In this document: one piece after another, positions 11,779-64,000 of the stretch
Layout of the letters: every line of letters begins with the position of its first letter
Position numbering within the stretch: the first letter of the stretch is position 1
Source of the DNA: an uncultured Candidatus Saccharibacteria bacterium
GTDB lineage: Bacteria > Patescibacteriota > Minisyncoccia > Phycocordibacterales > Zambryskibacteraceae
NCBI GenBank assembly: GCA_964642835.1
Contig: CAZXQA010000001.1
Location: forward strand, 68,219 to 132,218
DNA: 64,000 nucleotides
Reading direction: 5' to 3'
The notes under the pieces: model-generated
Databases searched by the model: none
What the model saw: only the letters and a program-made list of their open reading frames with translations
Told to the model about the DNA's origin: nothing
Made by a program: the position numbers and the translations under genes

Positions 11779-12063
11779 ATGACTGCCGCCTTCCATAGCT
11801 TCAAGGAGTTTGTCGATCTCATCTTGGGCTACATCGAGCTCATCACACCTATTGTTGCTTCGCTTGCTCTCCTTGCTTTCTTTTGGGGATTGGCGAAGTT
11901 TATCTTCTCGGCGAGCGAGAAGACAGTAGAAGACGGAAAGAACTTTATGATCTGGGGCGTCGTGGCGCTCTTTGTCATGGTATCCATTTTTGGCATTCTT
12001 CGGTACATGAACGGGGAATTGGGGCTGGGGACATTCGGGGTTCCCTTATTGCCGACGAACTAG
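11779..12063 (+). CDS. pilin-like small membrane protein, paralogue 3 (FFWGL subfamily)
   Basis: LALLAFFWGLAKFIFSASEKTVEDGKNFMIWGVVALFVMVSIFGILRY, a motif shared with paralogues 4-6. Confidence 0.5.
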   Translation: MTAAFHSFKEFVDLILGYIELITPIVASLALLAFFWGLAKFIFSASEKTVEDGKNFMIWGVVALFVMVSIFGILRYMNGELGLGTFGVPLLPTN

Positions 12064-12075
12064 CATAATAAAGAT

Positions 12076-12447
12076 ATGAAAAAATTGACATATACCGCCT
12101 TCCTGTCCGCCTTGCTTACAATGCCCGTGCTTGCTTTTGCTGCTACTTCTCAACTTACGAGAACGGGCGGGCTCATTAGAAGAGTAGGAGATCTCATCGA
12201 TATCTCCATCGGTATTGTGGCCGCCATGGCGCTTCTTGCCTTCTTCTGGGGTCTCACGCAGTACATCTACAAGAAAGCGAGTGATCCTAAAGCCGCCGGC
12301 GAAGGTAAGACGCTTATGATTTGGGGAACTATCGCTCTCTTCGTCATGGTCTCGGTCTGGGGTCTGGTCCGCTTCCTCCAAGTTGAATTCGACATCAATG
12401 ATACGAGCAACGTCTCTATCCCGGGATATACGAATTCCATCAGGTAA
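12076..12447 (+). CDS. pilin-like small membrane protein with signal peptide, paralogue 4
   Basis: Signal peptide then MALLAFFWGLTQYIYKKASDPKAAGEGKTLMIWGTIALFVMVSVWGLVRF. Confidence 0.5.
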   Translation: MKKLTYTAFLSALLTMPVLAFAATSQLTRTGGLIRRVGDLIDISIGIVAAMALLAFFWGLTQYIYKKASDPKAAGEGKTLMIWGTIALFVMVSVWGLVRFLQVEFDINDTSNVSIPGYTNSIR

Positions 12448-12543
12448 AGAGGGGATAACGGGCGTTGTCTTTCCTCCACGCTCCCGTATCATTAAGGCAT
12501 ACCGTGCAGGTATATTTAGAGGCTTAAACGTAACAATTAAAGA

Positions 12544-12885
12544 ATGAAAAAGTTTATTATCGCCGCGTTGGCAGTCGCTCCGACGATCGCTTCCGCTCAG
12601 CAGCTCGGTAACCTTCAGACGCTTCTCCAGTCAATCGGCCGCCTCATCGACCTCGCCTTGCCGATTGTCGTGGCGCTCGCTCTCCTCGCTTTCTTCTGGG
12701 GTCTCGCGAAGTTTATCTTTGCCGGCGCAGAGTCTGCAGAAGAAGCCAAGAACCTCATGATCTGGGCTGTCGTCGCTCTCTTCGTCATGGTCTCGGTCTG
12801 GGGTCTGGTCCGCTTTATCGGCAACGCCTTCGGCATCCAGCAGGGGGGTAGTGTTGATCTCCCAAGCGTTCAACTTAAGAGCTAA
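12544..12885 (+). CDS. pilin-like small membrane protein with signal peptide, paralogue 5
   Basis: Signal peptide (MKKFIIAALAVAPTIASA) then LALLAFFWGLAKFIFAGAESAEEAKNLMIWAVVALFVMVSVWGLVRF. Shares a 43-nt identical DNA tract with paralogue 4. Confidence 0.5.
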   Translation: MKKFIIAALAVAPTIASAQQLGNLQTLLQSIGRLIDLALPIVVALALLAFFWGLAKFIFAGAESAEEAKNLMIWAVVALFVMVSVWGLVRFIGNAFGIQQGGSVDLPSVQLKS

Positions 12886-12893
12886 TACGTAGC

Positions 12894-13163
12894 ATGACGT
12901 TCACAAGGCTTTTGAACAATATCAACGAGTTCATCCTGAACCCGATTATTGTTCTAGCCTTTGCGATCGCGCTTCTCTACTTCTTCTGGGGAGTGTACCA
13001 GTTCATCAGTACGGAAGCCGCGGGTAAGGACCGCGCGAAGGGTCAGCAAAAGATTCTCTACGGCATTCTCGGCATGTTCATCATGTTCGCGGCCAAGGGA
13101 CTCATCGGCTTGGTTCTCAATACCTTCGGTATTACTCCGAGTTCCTCCTACATCCAGTTCTAA
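12894..13163 (+). CDS. pilin-like small membrane protein, paralogue 6 (divergent)
   Basis: ALLYFFWGVYQFISTEAAGKDRAKGQQKILYGILGMFIMFAAKGL: same architecture, more diverged. Confidence 0.45.
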   Translation: MTFTRLLNNINEFILNPIIVLAFAIALLYFFWGVYQFISTEAAGKDRAKGQQKILYGILGMFIMFAAKGLIGLVLNTFGITPSSSYIQF

Positions 13164-15237: not shown

Positions 15238-15349
15238 TGAGCACCCCTTTCTAGGGCAGAATTGTGAACGTACTTCCTCTCTATATTATATCACACTTTA
15301 TGTCTAAAAGTCAAGGGCTGCGAGAGGCGAGGAGAGAAAGGTATACTAT

Positions 15350-47524: not shown

Positions 47525-49041
47525 TACTTGGTGACTTTAATAACCGCTTCGAGGATGTCGCTGGGGACGATCTCGAGCTTCGACTCAATGAGAGCGCCGA
47601 ACTCACTTCCTTCCAGCACTTCTTCAGCGGCGATCTTTGACTGTTGGAGCTCCTTTACTCGTCCGCGACCAATCTCTGCCTCACGGCGCATAATTTTGAC
47701 CATGGCGTTCAAGGTAACCTTGCCGGTGACGACGCGAGCACCGAGGACTTGTTTGCCGGAAGACTGGCTGAAGAGTTTCAAAACCTTGGCGGACCCGCAA
47801 ACTTCTTCCACCTCGATTCTTGGTTCGCGTTCGGCGAGGAGAGCGCTTACCTTGTCGGTCAGTTCATAAATAATCGTGAAGGGGAGAATAGTGACGCCCG
47901 TGCGCTCGGCGAGAGCGGCCGCCGCGGCGTCGATCTTCGCGTGGAAGCCAAAGATCACCGTGCCAGGAGTGGTGAGAGCGGCCTTCACGTCGTTTTCATT
48001 AATAGCTCCCACACTCATTGCCACTACTTTCGGCGTGATGCGTTCGCGAGAGAGTTTGGCGATCTCACTCTCAACAGCCTCGAGGCTTCCCGCAGTGTCG
48101 GCCTTGATGATGAGAGGAAGAATAGAGTCGGTAGTTGAGACTCTTGGACCGGCTGGTTTTTTGGCGGCTTCGGCTTGGTCGTCCACGTACGCGAGAGCTT
48201 CATCCTTTTTCAAAAATGTTTTGAACATGGCACCAATCGGAGGCAATTTGTCCCAACCGACGATTTGAACCGGGCTCGAGAAGGAGAGTTCCTCGAGCTG
48301 CTTGCCTTCTGCGTCCAGGAGAAAGCGGAGAGGCGTCATCGCGGTGCCCGAGGCGGCGAAGGTGCCCTTGCGAACGGTGCCGTCTTTAATAATGGCCACC
48401 GCTGTAATGCCGCGCTTTGGATCAAGGCGGCTCTCAATGATGACGCCTGTGCCGAGAGTATCGGTATCACCAGTAAGTTCCAAAATGTCTGCTTGAAGCG
48501 CGATCATTTCCAACAGATCGTTCACTCCCTGGCCAGTTTTGGCGGAAAGGGGGACGCAGGAAACGTCGCCGCCGTAACCCTCGACGTAGATGCCGCTCTC
48601 GGCAAGATTCTGCTTCACGCGTTCAATGTCCGCGGTCGGCTTGTCCATCTTGGTGACAGCCACAATGAAGGGGAGCTTGGCTTCGGAGATGTATTTATAG
48701 ACCTCTACCGTCTGCGGCTTCACGCCGTCTTCGCCAGAGACAATAAGGACGGCGATGTCAGCGGCCGAGGCGCCGCGAGTGCGCACGTTCTGGAAGGCTT
48801 CATGTCCTGGCGTGTCGAGGAAGGTGATGCGCATGTCGCGGCCATCTTCACGAGTGTGAGTCACTTCGTAGGCGCTAATGTGTTGGGTGATACCGCCGGC
48901 TTCCGTCGCGACGACGTTACTTTTCCTGATGTAATCAAGAAGCGTCGACTTGCCGTGGTCGATGTGTCCAAGAATACCTACAACTGGAGGGCGGATTGAC
49001 ATACGTGTTGCTACCTTATCATATTTGGCTAAGATATGCAT
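47524..49041 (-). CDS. infB: translation initiation factor IF-2 (short form, G domain onward)
   Basis: G1 VVGILGHIDHGKSTLLD, DTPGHEAF, and the C-terminal IF2 beta-barrel domains. The long N-terminal extension seen in other bacteria is absent. Confidence 0.9.
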   Translation of the reverse strand: MHILAKYDKVATRMSIRPPVVGILGHIDHGKSTLLDYIRKSNVVATEAGGITQHISAYEVTHTREDGRDMRITFLDTPGHEAFQNVRTRGASAADIAVLIVSGEDGVKPQTVEVYKYISEAKLPFIVAVTKMDKPTADIERVKQNLAESGIYVEGYGGDVSCVPLSAKTGQGVNDLLEMIALQADILELTGDTDTLGTGVIIESRLDPKRGITAVAIIKDGTVRKGTFAASGTAMTPLRFLLDAEGKQLEELSFSSPVQIVGWDKLPPIGAMFKTFLKKDEALAYVDDQAEAAKKPAGPRVSTTDSILPLIIKADTAGSLEAVESEIAKLSRERITPKVVAMSVGAINENDVKAALTTPGTVIFGFHAKIDAAAAALAERTGVTILPFTIIYELTDKVSALLAEREPRIEVEEVCGSAKVLKLFSQSSGKQVLGARVVTGKVTLNAMVKIMRREAEIGRGRVKELQQSKIAAEEVLEGSEFGALIESKLEIVPSDILEAVIKVTK

Positions 49042-50052
49042 ATGGATTTCCTCCGAAAATATTTTTCCCCGAAGCGGATCTATCTCGACTATGCCGCGGC
49101 GACGCCGGTGTTGCCGGAAGTGCTCGCCGAGATGCGGAAGTACGAGAGGGAAGCATTTTATAATCCGAACGCGATTTATGAAGAAGGACTTGCCGTGAAG
49201 CGCGCCGTCGACGAGTATCGCACGAGAATCGCGCGCATCCTTGGTGTCGCCAAAGAAAACATTATCTTCACGAGCGGCGGGACGGAGGCGAACACGATCG
49301 CGGTTCGAGGGGCGACGGCTGGCGGTGGTCGCGTGGCATTAGGTGAGGGGACGCACCCCTCGGTTCATGACGCAATCCGTCCGAGTGATAAGGAAGAGAT
49401 CGTCCTAGTTTCAAGTGTAGTCGCCGACAACAAGCTAGGGAGAAAAATTCGTGAAGAGCGTAAAAAGAACCTGCCTGCCGGCAGGCAGGGTAATTCTATA
49501 TATCCACTTCTCCACGTCGATGCTTCGCAGACGGCGCAGTACGTCGCTGTTGGATTAGAAACCCTCGCGTGTGACCTCCTCACTCTTGATGCGGCAAAAA
49601 TATATGGACCGAAAGGCATCGGCGCTCTGGTCGTGCGAAGCGGGGTCAATCTCGACATCCCGCCGCGTGGCACGCCGCCCGTCGCTCTCATTGCTGGCCT
49701 TGCCAAAGCGTTCGAAATAGTTTCTCGTGATCGGGAGAAAGAGCGCGCTCGGGTCGAGGCTCTCGCGCAAGAATTCGCTCGCGAGGTGACTCGTCTCCTG
49801 CCCCAGGCCATTGTTTCCCACTTGGGAGTAAATATTGTCACTGTTTCCGTGCCAGGTATCTTGCCTGAGCTTCTTGTGCTCGCTCTTGAGCGCGGAGGGG
49901 TCCTCGCTTCAGCAGGGCCAGCGTGCGAGGCTCAGAAGCCGGAACCCGCGGAGACCCCGGTCCGCTTTTCCCTAGGACGAACGACAACGCGAAAAGAGCT
50001 CTGCAAGGCCGCGGAAGTCCTTTGTGATGTGGTCCAAAATATGATAAAATAG
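49036..50052 (+). CDS. class V aminotransferase (cysteine desulfurase family, IscS/NifS-like)
   Basis: ...[15 protein letters not shown]..., [13 protein letters not shown], and [14 protein letters not shown] (PLP-lysine region). Contains the in-frame 20-bp palindrome insertion at 49470-49489. Confidence 0.7.
49470..49489. repeat. 20-bp perfect palindrome CCTGCCTGCCGGCAGGCAGG (copy 1, in frame inside the aminotransferase gene)
   Basis: Exact palindrome, encodes LPAGRQ within ...[12 protein letters not shown]... Confidence 0.9.
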
Positions 50053-53034: not shown

Positions 53035-53118
53035 GCGTCGGTGGCGGAGTGGTCAATCGCACTAGACTGTAAATCTGGCGGCCTATGGCCTACGAAGGTT
53101 CGAATCCTTCCCGGCGCA
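53035..53118 (+). tRNA. tRNA-Tyr(GTA)
   Basis: Acceptor GCGTCGG/CCGGCGC (one G-U), D-arm GCGG-AGTGGTCAA-TCGC, anticodon loop CTGTAAA, long variable arm, T-loop TTCGAAT. The 3' end CCGGCGCACA recurs as the repeat core in the downstream island. Confidence 0.75.
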
Positions 53119-53120
53119 CA

Positions 53121-53209: not shown

Positions 53210-53364
53210 CGAGCCGGGGTCGCGCGAAAATTCAGCAGAATTTTATGCGTGACCGAAAGTGTACTCACGCCCCTGCCCGGCGCACAATGTTTGAAAATCA
53301 CTATTTTTAGAAGCCTTTGCGAGTATATCGTAAGGGCTTTTAAACTTAATTTGAGCCACATTTC
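53210..53364. repeat. direct repeat copy 1 (155 bp, identical to 56234..56388)
   Basis: Exact 155-bp match, contains CCCCTGCCCGGCGCACAATG (tRNA-Tyr 3'-end core). Imperfect similarity continues for ~30 more bp. Confidence 0.9.
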
Positions 53365-53959
53365 GTTCTTTGATGGAAAGGTTCCAAAGTAGATTTTCCA
53401 GGATTTCTTTCTTTCCGTTCTCGTCTTTCTCTAAAAACTCTTTTCTGGCTCTACTGCCTCGTAAAAATACTTCTTTAGTCGATTCCAAAGTAGCAGACGG
53501 CTCACGCTGTTTTAGCTCCTGAATCTGCTTGTTAAGGGAAACTCTCTGGTTCTGGATTTCTAGAACCTTCTGGTCATAGAGTTCTTTGGTAATCTGGCTA
53601 TCAAGGAAAGTATCAAGAAGCCTCTGCTCTCTCGTCTTAAGACCTCCCAGGGCGGTTTCCAGTTCTTTTATGGCCTTATCAAAGTAGCCGTTATCAGCCT
53701 GAAGCCTTTCCTTGGCGGCTTGGTACATAAGCTCGATCTTTCTCTCGGTAAAGTCTAGGTTTAGGAATAAATCGGCTACTTTAGGATAAAGGTAAGTTTC
53801 TCGAAGATAAGTCTTGTGTTCTTCACACTTCTGTTTGCCGTTAGTGCAGTAGTAATAATGGTGGCCTTTTTTAAGTGAAGCTGTTAATGAGCAACCGCAA
53901 GTCTCACATTTAAGGAACCCTCTTAATGAAAGAGATATTAGGAAGCGCTTTAATACCGC
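53243..53959 (-). pseudogene. large serine recombinase, N-terminally truncated remnant (zinc-ribbon, coiled-coil and C-terminal parts only)
   Basis: The stop-to-stop frame gives ...RGFLKCETCGCSLTASLKKGHHYYYCTNGKQKCEE... (recombinase zinc beta-ribbon), then a coiled coil (KAIKELETALGGLKTREQRLLDTFLD...). It is bounded upstream by TAA at 53960-62, all three upstream frames are closed, and the catalytic resolvase domain is absent. Confidence 0.6.
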
Positions 53960-54621: not shown

Positions 54622-54662
54622 GCCCACCGGGCAACACTTCTCGGTGGGCGGTTTTCTTTTTT
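54622..54662 (+). terminator. rho-independent terminator
   Basis: GCCCACCGggcaacacttctCGGTGGGC followed by GGTTTTCTTTTTT. Confidence 0.5.
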
Positions 54663-55134
54663 AATTCTCCCTTCGTGTTTTCTTAGCCTCGTTTTCTAGT
54701 CGAGAAATCCATTTTGTGTTTTCGGTTGAAACGAGTGCTTCCACTACACCCACAAGGATTCTTTTAGCCTCTTCATCATTTTTCCCTTCATACTGGCCAG
54801 TTCGGCCAAGGTAAGTATATTTTTCATGTCTCAATGCTTCGCAAGTAGCTCTGTATGCAATCCAATTTTGAGACCATTGATTTACATGTTGAAGCCCTTC
54901 GATAACAACTACAACAACACCTAAAAAACCAGTTATCTTGGGGAAGCTAGTTGCAATAAAGGGAATTAAAGCGGCACAAGTTATTTCTGCCAGCTTAGAT
55001 CGTTTATACCACCATTGTGCACTACCAGATTTTTTGTCGTACCAAGCTATCTGTTGCTCAAGCCTTGGGTATTTCGAATCTGGCTCTTGGTCAACATTTC
55101 CAGGGGTGATGGTTTTGCTGAAAATGTTTAACAT
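54661..55134 (-). CDS. SLATT-clan / DUF4231-like two-TM membrane protein (putative effector)
   Basis: 157 aa. EQQIAWYDKKSGSAQWWYKRSKL, then two TM helices (LAEITCAALIPFIATSF; ITGFLGVVVVVIEGL), then WSQNWIAYRATCEALRHEKYTYLGRTGQYEG. Fits the DUF4231 pattern (W..Y.kk...y.r...TM-TM...W..yR...E.L..E...Y..G...Y). AT-rich relative to the host. Start overlaps the stop of the upstream TIR gene (ATGTTAA). Confidence 0.55.
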   Translation of the reverse strand: MLNIFSKTITPGNVDQEPDSKYPRLEQQIAWYDKKSGSAQWWYKRSKLAEITCAALIPFIATSFPKITGFLGVVVVVIEGLQHVNQWSQNWIAYRATCEALRHEKYTYLGRTGQYEGKNDEEAKRILVGVVEALVSTENTKWISRLENEAKKTRREN

Positions 55135-55712
55135 CGGACTCTTACTTTACTTGCAATAGGGTGAGTCCTTTTCTCAAAAGCTCGCTCGATATAAGCATTG
55201 GGATCGGCAACAAAGTCGTCCCATTTTACGAGAACGCCGTATCGTTCATCTTCTGTGTGATGGCATTTGTCCTCGTGAATAAAATAGTTTCGATGAAATT
55301 CCTTGATAGTAGTACTGTCATTAACATATACAACACTAATCGGAGTACCGCATCCTCCGCAGGAAGAGGGTGATCCAAAGACACGGTCATACATCTTAGG
55401 GAGCACAATTCCAAGAATGCCGCTTCGAGGATTATTCTCTCCGTCGTAAAGAGAAGCTTGAAGCTCTCGTTTGATAAATTTTTGCTCATCCCACCCAAGA
55501 TTCTCTGCGCTGTTCTCTCCGATAAGGTGAAGTGTTACGGTTGAATCCGAGAGGTATTCCTCACGGATCTTTCGCATGATGTAATCCTCGTCATCTGAAT
55601 CAATAGCTTCGTCCAGAGACTTATCAATCATGTCGAGGCCGGGCATAGCTTGAATTGCCAGTTTGTACGCTAGATCCTCAGTTTTAAAAGATATAAAGCC
55701 TTTTCTCGCCAT
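55128..55712 (-). CDS. TIR-like domain protein, ThsB-like (DUF1863/MTH538 type)
   Basis: MARKGFISFKTEDLAYKLAIQ (beta-A VFISF..D) ... STVTLHLIGENSAENLGWDEQKFIKRELQAS ... GILGIVLP closely parallels the ThsB pattern (KRVFFSFHYQD ... VLIGSQTFNRRWVRYEI ... IIGI). C-terminal Cys/His cluster SSCGGCGTP...HEDKCHH. Confidence 0.6.
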   Translation of the reverse strand: MARKGFISFKTEDLAYKLAIQAMPGLDMIDKSLDEAIDSDDEDYIMRKIREEYLSDSTVTLHLIGENSAENLGWDEQKFIKRELQASLYDGENNPRSGILGIVLPKMYDRVFGSPSSCGGCGTPISVVYVNDSTTIKEFHRNYFIHEDKCHHTEDERYGVLVKWDDFVADPNAYIERAFEKRTHPIASKVRVRC

Positions 55713-56233: not shown

Positions 56234-56388
56234 CGAGCCGGGGTCGCGCGAAAATTCAGCAGAATTTTATGCGTGACCGAAAGTGTACTCACGCCCCTGC
56301 CCGGCGCACAATGTTTGAAAATCACTATTTTTAGAAGCCTTTGCGAGTATATCGTAAGGGCTTTTAAACTTAATTTGAGCCACATTTC
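56234..56388. repeat. direct repeat copy 2 (155 bp, identical to 53210..53364)
   Basis: Exact copy. In the recombinase frame it again encodes the last ~50 codons of the serine recombinase, so it is a second recombinase 3' remnant. Confidence 0.9.
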
Positions 56389-56443
56389 CATATTTGAGAG
56401 AAAGGTTCCAATAAAGGCTTAATATTACATATAATTCTACATA

Positions 56444-60440: not shown

Positions 60441-60524
60441 TGGTGCCGGAGAGAGGACTCGAACCTCCACCCCTTTCGGAACACGATTTTGAGTCGTGCG
60501 CGTCTACCATTCCGCCACTCCGGC
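60441..60524 (-). tRNA. tRNA-Leu(CAA), encoded CCA
   Basis: Acceptor GCCGGAG/CTCCGGC, anticodon stem CACGA/TCGTG, loop CTCAAAA, long variable arm, T-loop TTCGAGT, 3' CCA. Confidence 0.8.
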
Positions 60525-60525
60525 A

Positions 60526-60765
60526 TTAATTGAAATGACCCTTAAGAAACTCTTTACCTTCTCCAGTTTTAAACCATTTTTCTCTTGCACGTGCACTTAT
60601 TCTATCGGGGAATCTTTCTGTGTACAGTAAGGTAAACGGAGCGTATGGCTTTGTTGTCTTATTGCTTCCTGAATTATGCTGACCAAATCTTCTCTCTAAG
60701 TTGTCGGAAATTCCCACGTACAGGTAGCGCCTATTTAAGCTTTTAAGTACGTAGACAAAGTACAT
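60526..60765 (-). CDS. GIY-YIG nuclease family protein (small stand-alone)
   Basis: MYFVYVLKSLNRRYLYVGISDNLERRFGQHN contains the GIY...YIG motifs. 79 aa. The 20-bp palindrome lies 14-33 nt upstream of its start. Confidence 0.75.
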   Translation of the reverse strand: MYFVYVLKSLNRRYLYVGISDNLERRFGQHNSGSNKTTKPYAPFTLLYTERFPDRISARAREKWFKTGEGKEFLKGHFN

Positions 60766-60778
60766 AATTCTCCGCCAC

Positions 60779-60798
60779 CCTGCCTGCCGGCAGGCAGG
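60779..60798. repeat. 20-bp perfect palindrome CCTGCCTGCCGGCAGGCAGG (copy 2, in the 5' leader of the GIY-YIG gene)
   Basis: Exact palindrome in the intergenic gap between the GIY-YIG gene and parB. Confidence 0.9.
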
Positions 60799-60850
60799 TC
60801 CGGCAATGAACTTCTACAAATTACCTTAATTTGGTGCTAAAATCTAGCAC

Positions 60851-61867: not shown

Positions 61868-61958
61868 GCCGTTTTCTAGGGCTTGACTTTTTGATATTAA
61901 GTGTGATATAATACAGATAGAACGTTCGGGATTTACCCGAATGACTTTGGAGGTTCGA

Positions 61959-62191: not shown

Positions 62192-62222
62192 AGGCACCCT
62201 TCACCGGGTGCCTTATTTTTAT
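62192..62222 (+). terminator. rho-independent terminator
   Basis: AGGCACCCttcaccGGGTGCCT followed by TATTTTTATTT. Abuts the topA stop. Confidence 0.55.
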
Positions 62223-64000
62223 TTCGCTTTCTTTTTGAACCCTCTCACCTTCTTTTCTTCTTTCAAAATTTCTAACGCACGTGCAAGGGTAATGGTGTAG
62301 ACGTCATCGGTTTTCAAAGAGCGGAAGTCGGGCTTCGGCTTCGTGTTGTGAGCGATATAAGGACCGAAGCGTCCGACGTTCGCGGTAATTTTCTCACCGG
62401 TCTCCGGATGCGTGCCCAAGGTGCGCGGGAGCGTGAGGTAGACGAGGGCGTCCGCGAGCGTGACACTTCCCACATCTTTGTCCTTCGGGAGGCTGGCTTT
62501 CTTCGCTTTCAATTTCTTTTTCTTATCATCTTCGCCGAGTTGGACATAGGGACCGAAGCGACCTGTTTTAACAAAGACGGAGAGACCTGTTTCTGGATCA
62601 ACGCCGATCGGTTCATCAGGCTTAATCTCCGCGCCGTCGAGAGTGCGAGCTCCCGCGCAGTCCGGGAAGCGTTCGCAAGAGTAGAATTTGCCGCCGCGGC
62701 CGAGTTTGACCACCATGCCAGCGCCGCACGTCGGGCACTTCATATCCTTCGGGGCTTCGCCCATCGTCGTGAGTTTGTCGAGCTTGTCCTTGCTCTTCAC
62801 ATCCTTGAGGAAAGGGCCGTAGAAGTCTTTGAGGGTTTTCTCGTACGTGCGCTTGCCTTCGGCGATCTCGTCGAGCTCGTCTTCCATCTCGGCGGTGAAG
62901 GAGTCGGAAATATAGTTTTGGAAATTGCCTTCCAGGAAGGTGGAGACGACGTCGCCCGTGTCCGTCGGTACGAGAGCTTTGTTCTGCTTCTCCACGTAAC
63001 CTCGATCCTCCAAGGTCTTAATAATAGAGGCGTACGTGGATGGGCGTCCGATGCCGCGCTTCTCCAACTCTTTAATAAGACCGGCTTCGGAGTAGCGGGC
63101 CGGCGGCTCGGTTTGCTTCTCGGTCGAGAGAAGATTCGTGAGAGTGAGCGCTTCGCCTAAGGAGAGCTTCGGGAGGACGACGTCTTCGCTCGCGGAAGCG
63201 GGATCGGCCTTGAGCCAGCCGTCGAACATGACGCGTGAACCGTTGAGATGGAAATCGGGGACCTGCCTGCCGGCAGGCAGGTCGTGTCCTCCTTCAATAT
63301 TGGCCACGACCTTCGTGCGCATCATCTGGGCGTCTTTCATTTGGCTTGAGACGGTGCGGCTCCAGATAAGAGCGTAGAGACGCTGCTGCTCTTCGGTGGC
63401 GCCCGCTTTCATGACGTCGAGGTGGGTGGGACGGATAGCTTCGTGAGCTTCTTGAGCGTTCTTACTCTTCTTGGCAAAGACGTGAGACTCATAGTAGTCG
63501 GCGCCGTAGTGCTTCTTCACCACTGCTTCGATCTGAGTGCGAGCTTGAGCGCCGAGATTGGTCGAGTCAGTACGCATATAGGTAATGTGACCGGCTTCGT
63601 AAAGGCGCTGGGCGACGGACATGGTACGGGAAGGCGACCAACCGAGGCGCGAGGAGGCGGCTTGCTGGATGGTTGAGGTGATGAAAGGCGCGCGTGGACT
63701 TCTGGCGACCTTGGTTTCCTTAATATCGGTGATACTCCAGTCGCCAGCGTTGCCGAGTTTTAAAATCCTCTCGACCTCCTTCTTGTCTGTCGGTTCCGTC
63801 GAGCATGTAAAGTTCATCTCGGCTTGTCCCGCAGAGCCTTGGCGGAGTAGGGCGGTGATGACCCAGAAGGTTGTCGGAGTGAAGGCGCGGATCTCACGCT
63901 CACGCTCCATAATGATGCGCAGCGCCGGAGACTGCACGCGGCCGGCGGAGAGGCCGTAGCGGACCTTCTTCCAAATAAGGCCCGAGAGATCGTACCCGAC
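62219..64000 (-). CDS. topA: DNA topoisomerase I (partial, 5' end beyond the window)
   Basis: Toprim/topoisomerase core motifs (...GRVQSPALRIIMERE..., active-site Tyr region ITYMRTDS), C-terminal C4 zinc ribbons (CPTCGAGMVVKLGRGGKFYSC..FPDC). The ORF is open to the window edge. Confidence 0.9.
   Translation of the reverse strand, partial: VGYDLSGLIWKKVRYGLSAGRVQSPALRIIMEREREIRAFTPTTFWVITALLRQGSAGQAEMNFTCSTEPTDKKEVERILKLGNAGDWSITDIKETKVARSPRAPFITSTIQQAASSRLGWSPSRTMSVAQRLYEAGHITYMRTDSTNLGAQARTQIEAVVKKHYGADYYESHVFAKKSKNAQEAHEAIRPTHLDVMKAGATEEQQRLYALIWSRTVSSQMKDAQMMRTKVVANIEGGHDLPAGRQVPDFHLNGSRVMFDGWLKADPASASEDVVLPKLSLGEALTLTNLLSTEKQTEPPARYSEAGLIKELEKRGIGRPSTYASIIKTLEDRGYVEKQNKALVPTDTGDVVSTFLEGNFQNYISDSFTAEMEDELDEIAEGKRTYEKTLKDFYGPFLKDVKSKDKLDKLTTMGEAPKDMKCPTCGAGMVVKLGRGGKFYSCERFPDCAGARTLDGAEIKPDEPIGVDPETGLSVFVKTGRFGPYVQLGEDDKKKKLKAKKASLPKDKDVGSVTLADALVYLTLPRTLGTHPETGEKITANVGRFGPYIAHNTKPKPDFRSLKTDDVYTITLARALEILKEEKKVRGFKKKAK
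63262..63281. repeat. 20-bp perfect palindrome CCTGCCTGCCGGCAGGCAGG (copy 3, in frame inside topA; 24-bp with flanks)
   Basis: Exact palindrome (GACCTG...CAGGTC is palindromic over 24 bp). Encodes LPAGRQ within topoisomerase I (...GGHDLPAGRQVPDF...). Confidence 0.9.

Follow-up and report, generated by a model that had tools for sequence, protein, structure and literature searches.

Examination of the 64,000-nt stretch of DNA considered here in its entirety, referred to below as the window, raises the question of how one and the same 20-nt perfect palindrome, CCTGCCTGCCGGCAGGCAGG (hereafter P), came to lie in frame within two essential genes as well as at a third site, and of what that third site says about its origin. 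Exactly three exact copies of P were found in the window, and these are listed in Table 1 along with the genes concerned. No other copies were detected in the window at three or fewer mismatches, while no match was obtained in any of 100 dinucleotide-preserving shuffles of the same DNA. As such, the contention of an earlier sequence-only reading of this DNA that three identical 20-mers cannot be chance was borne out, as were its descriptions of a GCCGGC core at the center of P and of a topA copy in which the palindrome is widened to 24 bp (63260-63283, GACCTGCCTGCCGGCAGGCAGGTC). In single-stranded form, P pairs with itself over 8 bp, leaving CCGG as the loop (-8 kcal/mol).

Table 1. Copies of P and associated genes and remnants in the 64-kb window.
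Feature	Position	Strand	Remarks
P copy 1 with extra G (49490)	49470..49490		21-nt in-frame insertion, LPAGRQG; exact match at 49470-49489
P copy 2, 'home' copy	60779..60798		14 nt upstream of the GIY-YIG start codon
P copy 3 with extra base 63282 (A, coding strand)	63262..63282		21-nt in-frame insertion
Host gene 1, class V aminotransferase/cysteine desulfurase-like, 338 aa	49036..50052	+	Pfam PF00266
Host gene 2, DNA topoisomerase I, continuing past the window end	62219..64000	-	Pfam PF01131, PF01396, PF13368
Single-domain GIY-YIG nuclease gene, 79 aa, candidate partner of P	60526..60765	-	Pfam PF01541
Intact tRNA-Leu(CAA)	60441..60524	-	ARAGORN; Rfam tRNA 59.8 bits
Displaced tRNA-Leu 5' fragment, nt 1-14 (GCCGGA + GTGGCGGA)	60771..60804	-	Split by P after nt 6

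Several other features of the window were noted. Direct repeats of 178 nt that are 97% identical (53210-53387 and 56234-56411) flank an island of about 3 kb of low GC content (48%), found just downstream of a tRNA-Tyr gene (53035-53119) and including genes for a ThsB-type TIR protein (55128-55712, minus strand) and a DUF4231/SLATT two-transmembrane effector (54661-55134, minus strand). The island looks like a small integrated defense island with att-like repeats. A 47-nt inverted repeat (CGTACTTCCTCTCTATATTATATCACAC...), 83% complementary, is found at 15269-15315 and 61882-61928, 46 kb apart, in AT-rich and apparently intergenic settings, and could correspond to a shared promoter or leader element. 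Finally, the region at 11832-12991 contains paralogous segments in tandem, three to four in number and each about 75 nt long, which encode hydrophobic LLAFFWGL-type stretches and probably represent a small membrane or pilin-like gene family.

In-frame insertions in the aminotransferase and TopA

As had been proposed, both coding copies of P are read as the hexapeptide LPAGRQ, namely, in the plus-strand ORF spanning 49036-50052 and in the minus-strand topA ORF, where the context is HDLPAGRQVPDF. Alignment of the orthologous proteins revealed LPAGRQ, together with one further residue, to be an insertion in each case, these residues being missing from the closest homologues. Thus, whereas homologues of the aminotransferase present the consensus REERKKN-NSxYPLLH, the window protein contains seven additional residues at this position that are not found in a 77% identical homologue (P0002). 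At the DNA level, the empty site reads AAA AAT AAT TCT (L202/P0002), as opposed to AAG AA[P]G T AAT TCT in the window. Likewise, the motif IEG-x-x-IPDF seen in 120 TopA homologues is replaced by IEGGHDLPAGRQVPDF in the window protein, again a gain of seven residues (encoded by A plus P on the coding strand) that is not shared by an 82% identical TopA (P0122). The full-length version of the window TopA, a protein of 735 residues and 100% identical to the portion encoded here, is found in P0121. Going by those homologues that bear names, the organism is a Parcubacteria/Zambryskibacteria-like member of the Patescibacteria.

Protein Data Bank matches of the aminotransferase were IscS/NifS cysteine desulfurases, and alignment to solved structures showed the insertion to face a gap in IscS, located where a helix gives way to the LHxDA strand, while the TopA insertion aligned to a gap at the beta-hairpin turn of Escherichia coli TopA (1CY0). 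Both insertions thus map opposite gaps at loop positions, as the sequence-only reading had expected, and homologue alignments showed both sites to be length-variable loops within their protein families. Both coding copies are true insertions of seven residues (21 nt) into variable surface loops. With LPAGRQ and its additional residue missing from the closest homologues and with an empty site evident in the DNA, the idea of a miniature palindromic element whose copies spread and are tolerated within coding regions was supported.

By contrast, the statement that the length of the palindrome keeps the reading frame was wrong, since the unit measures 20 nt, which shifts the frame, and ORFs keep only those copies bearing one additional base, such that each of the two genes has gained 21 nt. 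The position of that base varies. Versions of 21 nt with the extra base at differing places include the window copies, L203 and L204, while in two homologues with LPAGKAG and LPAGEAG insertions, the DNA corresponds to P with one extra central base (CCTGCCTGCCGGC[A]AGGCAGG and CTTGCCTGCCGGC[G]AGGCAGG). Hence, the unit is 20 nt, while in essential ORFs, where the insertions fall in tolerant surface loops, only 21-nt versions are seen, the added base being either terminal or central. For a coding copy to be 21 nt long, insertion must have been imprecise or else accompanied by a +1 change, a point that weighs against the explanation favored below. Independent LPAGRQ insertions at other positions were found in three homologues (P0105, P0135, and P0004). 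Among 240 aminotransferase and TopA homologues, inserted P was read solely in the LPAGRQ frame, which also predominates among long ORFs spanning P sites.

Other short insertions occur in the same loops of additional aminotransferases (P0047, P0074, P0053, and P0007) and TopA proteins (P0134, P0145, P0147, and P0150), including HLSTWHVDRLG, DPTSLKLRGA, RPVCRQGRRG, SSTSLTTS, and PSTSSGQA or PSTGSGQA. Several of these look to be palindrome-encoded, which would suggest further families of ORF-entering hairpins in Parcubacteria. It was also noted that a gene encoding a DUF559 protein (Vsr-like endonuclease fold) is found directly upstream of topA, just past the end of the window (L201:8525-8902).

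The third copy of P and its counterparts in other genomes

The remaining copy, earlier described as intergenic, is not plain intergenic DNA. Here, P breaks up a second, 14-nt instance of the tRNA-Leu 5' end, and a GIY-YIG gene follows immediately downstream. On the minus strand, the region reads GCCGGA[P]GTGGCGGA-gaatt-ATG...(79 codons)...TAA-t-GCCGGAGTGGCGGAATGG..., with the last part corresponding to the intact tRNA-Leu(CAA), which begins 1 nt past the GIY-YIG stop codon. When exactly 20 nt are removed, the upstream fragment is the same as the first 14 nt of the intact downstream tRNA-Leu. The GIY-YIG ORF accordingly lies between 14-nt direct repeats of the tRNA 5' end, the upstream one of which is split into 6 and 8 nt. 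The earlier suggestion of a possible link to a nuclease was, therefore, apt, given how the GIY-YIG gene starts 14 nt from this copy of P.

The predicted 79-residue protein matches PF01541 over residues 1-67 (E 1.4e-16) and contains no other domain. In an alignment of GIY-YIG homologues (A2), the catalytic-type residues Y5, Y16, G18, R26, H30, and E62 are invariant, and the nearest solved structures are the UPF0213 proteins 1YWL and 1ZG2 (E 7e-9), followed by SLX1. At this locus, tRNA was the only Rfam family detected, and no convincing sigma-70 promoter was seen upstream of the cassette. A literature search for GIY-YIG genes in association with tRNA-Leu in bacteria returned nothing relevant.

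A scan of 185,579 species genomes for the exact 20-mer revealed P in at least 120 species from several phyla. For comparison, the chance expectation for a given palindromic 20-mer in 596 Gb is, by simple arithmetic, about 0.5 occurrences. Among the matches listed, carriers belong to the Patescibacteria, Bacteroidota, Omnitrophota, Planctomycetota, Bdellovibrionota, Nitrospirota, Chloroflexota, and uncultured Proteobacteria, and most correspond to metagenome-assembled genomes; cultured Bacteroidota containing P include Winogradskyella, Flagellimonas, Longitalea, and Flavivirga. P is also found in complete long-read chromosomes from many laboratories and in 35 IMG/VR viral-contig stretches. An independently assembled Logan contig (L201) holds both the topA and the tRNA-remnant copies, and the aminotransferase containing LPAGRQG recurs in an ENA assembly (P0001). 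A full-text search of the literature for the exact 20-mer or for LPAGRQ yielded nothing relevant.

The flanks of P are unrelated between sites and the repeat is, therefore, P alone. The only flank signals are an A at position -1 (42%) and a T at position +1, the A..T pair surrounding P at 34 of 126 sites. About 70% of the P sites have no long spanning ORF. Decayed copies with 1-2 mismatches occur at the same loci as P, and P is nested within P, one base off center, at four loci (L018, L042, L021, and L028), with a further nested copy being found at L123. The possibility that P marks where the CCTGCCTGCC...GGCAGGCAGG ends of a larger element were joined was considered and rejected, as those half-sites found outside P in 0.9 Mb were decayed or nested copies of P. 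At five other P-centered genome loci (L091, L019, L031, L049, and L067), P occupies the loop of hairpins formed by other repeats (GTCATTCCCGC...GCGGGAATC or GTCATTGCGAGGAGCG...GAAGCAATC type), which by eye resemble NTS/SRM repeats; here, one hairpin family appears to be nested in another.

In terms of target preference, stems of at least 6 bp flank the P junction at 12% of the sites, relative to 2.7% of random positions, a control unmatched for intergenic DNA. P-in-P insertions fall in the hairpin loop, and insertions in tRNA remnants lie within or at the edge of loops. The three window sites correspond to loops of weak potential stems of 3-5 bp, although such stems are common by chance. The preference for hairpin loops is thus a modest trend and not a rule. 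Indeed, universal targeting of hairpin loops was rejected, since despite the enrichment over this unmatched control, most sites present no strong stem.

Clustering of ORFs found within 2.5 kb of 128 P sites revealed proteins of about 80 residues containing a GIY-YIG domain as the one relevant recurrent family next to P, and an HMM scan showed P or decayed P to lie 14-50 nt upstream of most such genes. Conversely, in 80 metagenome loci picked solely on the basis of protein similarity to the 79-residue nuclease, P (at two or fewer edits) was found within 100 nt of the GIY-YIG ORF in 63 cases and in exact form in 34, as compared to a background of 1 in 895 segments of 100 nt, although because many of the 80 loci are related by descent, these counts overstate the number of independent events. 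Among the 63 loci, P was upstream of the ORF 48 times and downstream 19 times. P is linked to the GIY-YIG/tRNA-Leu cassette, being present in some 80% of the loci chosen by protein.

Nearly all of the ORFs in the 80 loci abut a tRNA gene, mostly tRNA-Leu with any anticodon and occasionally tRNA-Arg, -Asn, -Gln, or -Lys, and two architectures were recognized. In type A, a tRNA 5' fragment comprising nt 1 to x (x = 14-41) and containing P is followed by the ORF and then by an intact tRNA 0-10 nt past the stop codon. In each of 27 such loci, removal of exactly 20 nt makes the fragment colinear with the tRNA located downstream of it, which it matches in sequence, and hence, there is no target duplication. 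P is found after tRNA nt 6, 9, 14-15, 22-24, or 32. In type B, an intact tRNA, a terminator, and the ORF are followed by a 5'-truncated tRNA copy in which the D, anticodon, variable, or T loops are interrupted by P-like hairpins, from one to three per copy. In both architectures, the cassette regenerates an intact tRNA, while P or a variant thereof is nearly always located within the disabled partial copy, leaving the functional copy free of P.

The cultured species Niabella insulamsoli contains type B cassettes in tandem with the hairpin variant CCTGTCTGCCGACAGGCAGG, and its GIY-YIG protein is 64% identical to that of the window. Because such identity is high for a Bacteroidota-Patescibacteria pair, this comparison of sequences points to horizontal transfer. 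In an orthologous cassette of the same arrangement as in the window (L122), the ORF is about 75% identical at the DNA level, while P is identical at 20 of 20 positions. This difference argues for P being either under constraint or re-homogenized, as judged from these sequences. Such conservation exceeds what neutrality would predict. At the same time, a GIY-YIG gene is found in the vicinity of only about 5% of all copies of P, and any role of the encoded enzyme in their spread would thus require action in trans.

Two additional ideas were discarded. Because some P flanks resemble D-arms, the presence of P inside functional tRNA genes was considered, yet upon deletion of P, ARAGORN recovered no intact tRNA that spanned the sites, the exception being a degenerate tRNA-Val copy in L030; these sites are, instead, partial and displaced tRNA copies. 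Likewise, no constant distance from P to the cassette junction, as would result from a staggered cut, was seen, with tRNA homology running a variable 0-26 nt past P.

Relatives of the nuclease were seen with other hairpins, such as GTCGCCTTAGGCGAC, CCTACCGCAGGTAGG, and TCTACCTGTCGGTAGA, at the same tRNA-Leu positions (L185, L190, L199, and L162). Such differing hairpins would be the expected product of diverging enzyme-hairpin pairs. Elsewhere, in a 701-residue ORF with a GIY-YIG domain (L060:2751-4892), P lies in frame and precedes the domain-encoding sequence by 41 nt; this ORF may represent a cassette absorbed into a larger gene. At L106:3650-4000, a tRNA-Gly(TCC) remnant with P in its anticodon stem is followed by an apparently frameshifted GIY-YIG ORF, which looks like a decaying cassette at a tRNA other than tRNA-Leu.

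How P may have spread

P is inserted DNA of exactly 20 nt that generates no target duplication. The explanation that we favor, to which a probability of about 0.65 is assigned, is that P is a 20-nt hairpin repeat serving as a miniature mobile element that is the companion of the 79-residue GIY-YIG cassette residing at tRNA-Leu. As part of this explanation, the copies at 49470 and 63262 are taken to be dispersed products and that at 60779 to be the copy resident beside the enzyme gene. By analogy with the Ssn nucleases considered below, the 79-residue protein would be the mover of P. As can be inferred from published Ssn biochemistry, the candidate nuclease may bind the P hairpin in single-stranded DNA and nick beside it. 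More speculatively, the nicked P strand could then be released and joined into other single-stranded DNA, favoring A^T steps and the loops of existing hairpins, with replication fixing the new copy while the donor would keep its own copy on the other strand. Since a nuclease by itself leaves the joining step unexplained, a ligase or repair pathway must be assumed.

An unlikely alternative is that P is mobilized by some other enzyme acting in trans, such as a REP-associated Y1/HUH transposase, with the GIY-YIG cassette merely sitting beside a tRNA remnant that offers P a neutral landing pad rich in hairpins. REP/RAYT and IS200/IS605 systems also handle single-stranded DNA hairpins and insert without target duplication (discussed in PMC11893778), P is found in tRNA fragments with no nearby GIY-YIG gene (L015 and L030), and most copies of P are far from any such gene. 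Against this, the clustering of ORFs around the 128 P sites revealed no transposase family and only GIY-YIG, whereas P was present at 63 of the 80 loci picked by the GIY-YIG protein alone. Moreover, relatives of the nuclease pair with different hairpins at the same tRNA positions (L185 and L240), and since its flanks are not conserved, P lacks the GTAG-type head of a REP. We consider it quite improbable that P next to the nuclease gene is instead a protective insert that breaks the partial tRNA copy, with the nuclease being a free-standing homing-type enzyme acting on tRNA-Leu and with the dispersal of P being a separate matter. Such a scheme would account for the absence of P and its variants from functional tRNA copies, all instances being confined to the duplicated segment. 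Once broken, the partial copy could no longer be targeted by the nuclease or recombine with the intact tRNA, an event that would remove the ORF; in the window, P reduces a 14-nt direct repeat to 6 and 8 nt. It likewise fits the regeneration of an intact tRNA in both architectures and the conservation of tRNA genes, which is sufficient for these to serve as homing sites across phyla. Yet, solo copies of P in ORFs and intergenic DNA of many phyla would be left unexplained, the 79-residue protein lacks the DNA-binding domain of homing GIY-YIG enzymes, the intact tRNA would still hold any tRNA-internal target, and several remnants contain two to three hairpin inserts, beyond what protection needs.

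The association of P with the GIY-YIG gene could also reflect two independent elements that both favor hairpins of tRNA origin, or else P may have been selected because it disrupts partial tRNA copies. By contrast, the proposal that P is a locally selected site, such as a protein-binding or restriction palindrome or an uptake signal, or else an assembly or library artifact, is effectively excluded, despite the NaeI/NgoMIV-type GCCGGC core and the fact that carriers are mostly metagenome-assembled genomes. Empty sites differ from filled sites by exactly 20 or 21 nt, the flanks of P are unrelated, and nested and decayed copies exist. An assembly artifact, in particular, is excluded because P recurs in isolates grown in culture and in complete chromosomes that many laboratories obtained by long-read sequencing, because reading frames remain intact, and because the topA and tRNA-remnant copies are seen again on L201 and the LPAGRQG-containing aminotransferase in P0001.

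Returning to the favored explanation of P as the companion of the GIY-YIG cassette, a more far-reaching version is offered only tentatively and may well prove wrong. According to this proposal, no smaller unit of transposable DNA would have been described to date than P, a bare 20-nt single-stranded DNA hairpin moved by a structure- and sequence-specific GIY-YIG nuclease of 79 residues; the cassette would cross phyla by way of the universally conserved tRNA-Leu, regenerating the tRNA as it does so, while the hairpin would be scattered throughout genomes and essential ORFs would keep only +1-corrected 21-nt copies of the LPAGRQ type. Were the pairing of P with the nuclease functional, a 20-nt unit would be seen to remodel essential proteins (TopA and cysteine desulfurase homologues) through recurrent LPAGRQ loops, and tRNA-Leu genes to offer a compact selfish cassette a landing site shared across phyla. 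The P-nuclease pair would also be a candidate for new specificity in single-stranded DNA-cutting tools. In addition, P is a recognizable source of assembly breaks and of spurious seven-residue insertions in metagenome-derived proteins.

Comparison with known systems

Rickettsia palindromic elements, with which the sequence-only reading had drawn a parallel, measure about 100-150 bp, are restricted to Rickettsia, and enter genes in frame, where they are tolerated as an extra peptide; to our knowledge, no partner enzyme has been identified. The parallel holds for behavior, given that P also enters protein-coding genes in frame, adding seven residues to both proteins, but not for size or hosts, as P comprises 20 nt (21 in ORFs), occurs in Patescibacteria, Bacteroidota, and other phyla, and has a candidate partner gene.

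REP and REPIN sequences are short GC-rich hairpins present in multiple copies, lineage-specific, and found beside the gene of the presumed spreading enzyme, the Y1 HUH protein RAYT, with the system relying on recognition of single-stranded hairpins and generating no target duplication. P is similarly a short GC-rich hairpin near a candidate enzyme gene. Here, however, the partner would be a GIY-YIG protein rather than a Y1 HUH enzyme, the former being encoded by the sole recurrent gene near P sites. Furthermore, a REP is an imperfect and extragenic palindrome with a conserved head tetranucleotide, whereas P is perfect, with two of its three window copies lying in ORFs, has neither a GTAG-type head nor a paired-REP unit, and is found across phyla.

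Free-standing GIY-YIG homing endonucleases, such as the Seg proteins of phage T4, are encoded by small selfish genes located in or beside conserved genes, including tRNA regions, possess a C-terminal DNA-binding domain, and are not accompanied by a dispersed hairpin repeat. The small GIY-YIG gene considered here is similarly found beside a conserved tRNA gene, yet the 79-residue protein corresponds to the catalytic domain alone. P differs from a MITE, which has terminal inverted repeats together with a target-site duplication, in that no such duplication is created, with removal of 20 nt restoring the tRNA sequence, and no full-length MITE-like element with P half-sites as ends was found in 0.9 Mb of P loci.

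The closest known system to P and its GIY-YIG gene is Ssn/SRM (Chenal et al., Nat Commun 2025, PMC11893778). Ssn proteins are single-domain GIY-YIG enzymes (cd10448) of about 94 residues that cut single-stranded DNA next to NTS/SRM hairpin repeats, which flank the ssn gene and are dispersed in hundreds of copies; 2% of the NTS copies in Neisseria meningitidis are intragenic (PMC11893778). The authors drew an IS-like layout and an analogy to REP/RAYT, although insertion was only hypothesized (PMC11893778). The two systems share a single-domain GIY-YIG protein (about 80-95 residues for Ssn and 79 residues here), as well as a hairpin repeat of 20-50 nt that both flanks the gene and is dispersed, here as P next to the ORF and two more copies in 64 kb. 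A tblastn search of plasmids, aimed at reference Ssn relatives, returned one weak Vibrio match.

Still, the two are distinct. The SRM consensus, HGTCWYN(0-2)YYVSBRHN(0-5)WNVSBRGN(0-2)RNCYNB, includes an oriented 5' flank (PMC11893778) and overlapped P at 0 of 210 P sites, with no matches in the window. P is a perfect palindrome that is identical across phyla, has no conserved oriented flank apart from the A at -1 (42%), is mostly found on only one side of the ORF, and lies in frame in essential genes. Moreover, the present cassette is docked at tRNA-Leu with partial duplication of the tRNA, whereas the Ssn paper mentions neither tRNA nor Bacteroidota or Patescibacteria (PMC11893778). Finally, P offers precise, base-resolved empty and filled sites, missing from the Ssn work, which demonstrate that such hairpins are truly inserted. 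If the pairing of P with its nuclease is functional, then the principle embodied by Ssn and its hairpin repeats would reach the candidate phyla radiation and the Bacteroidota.
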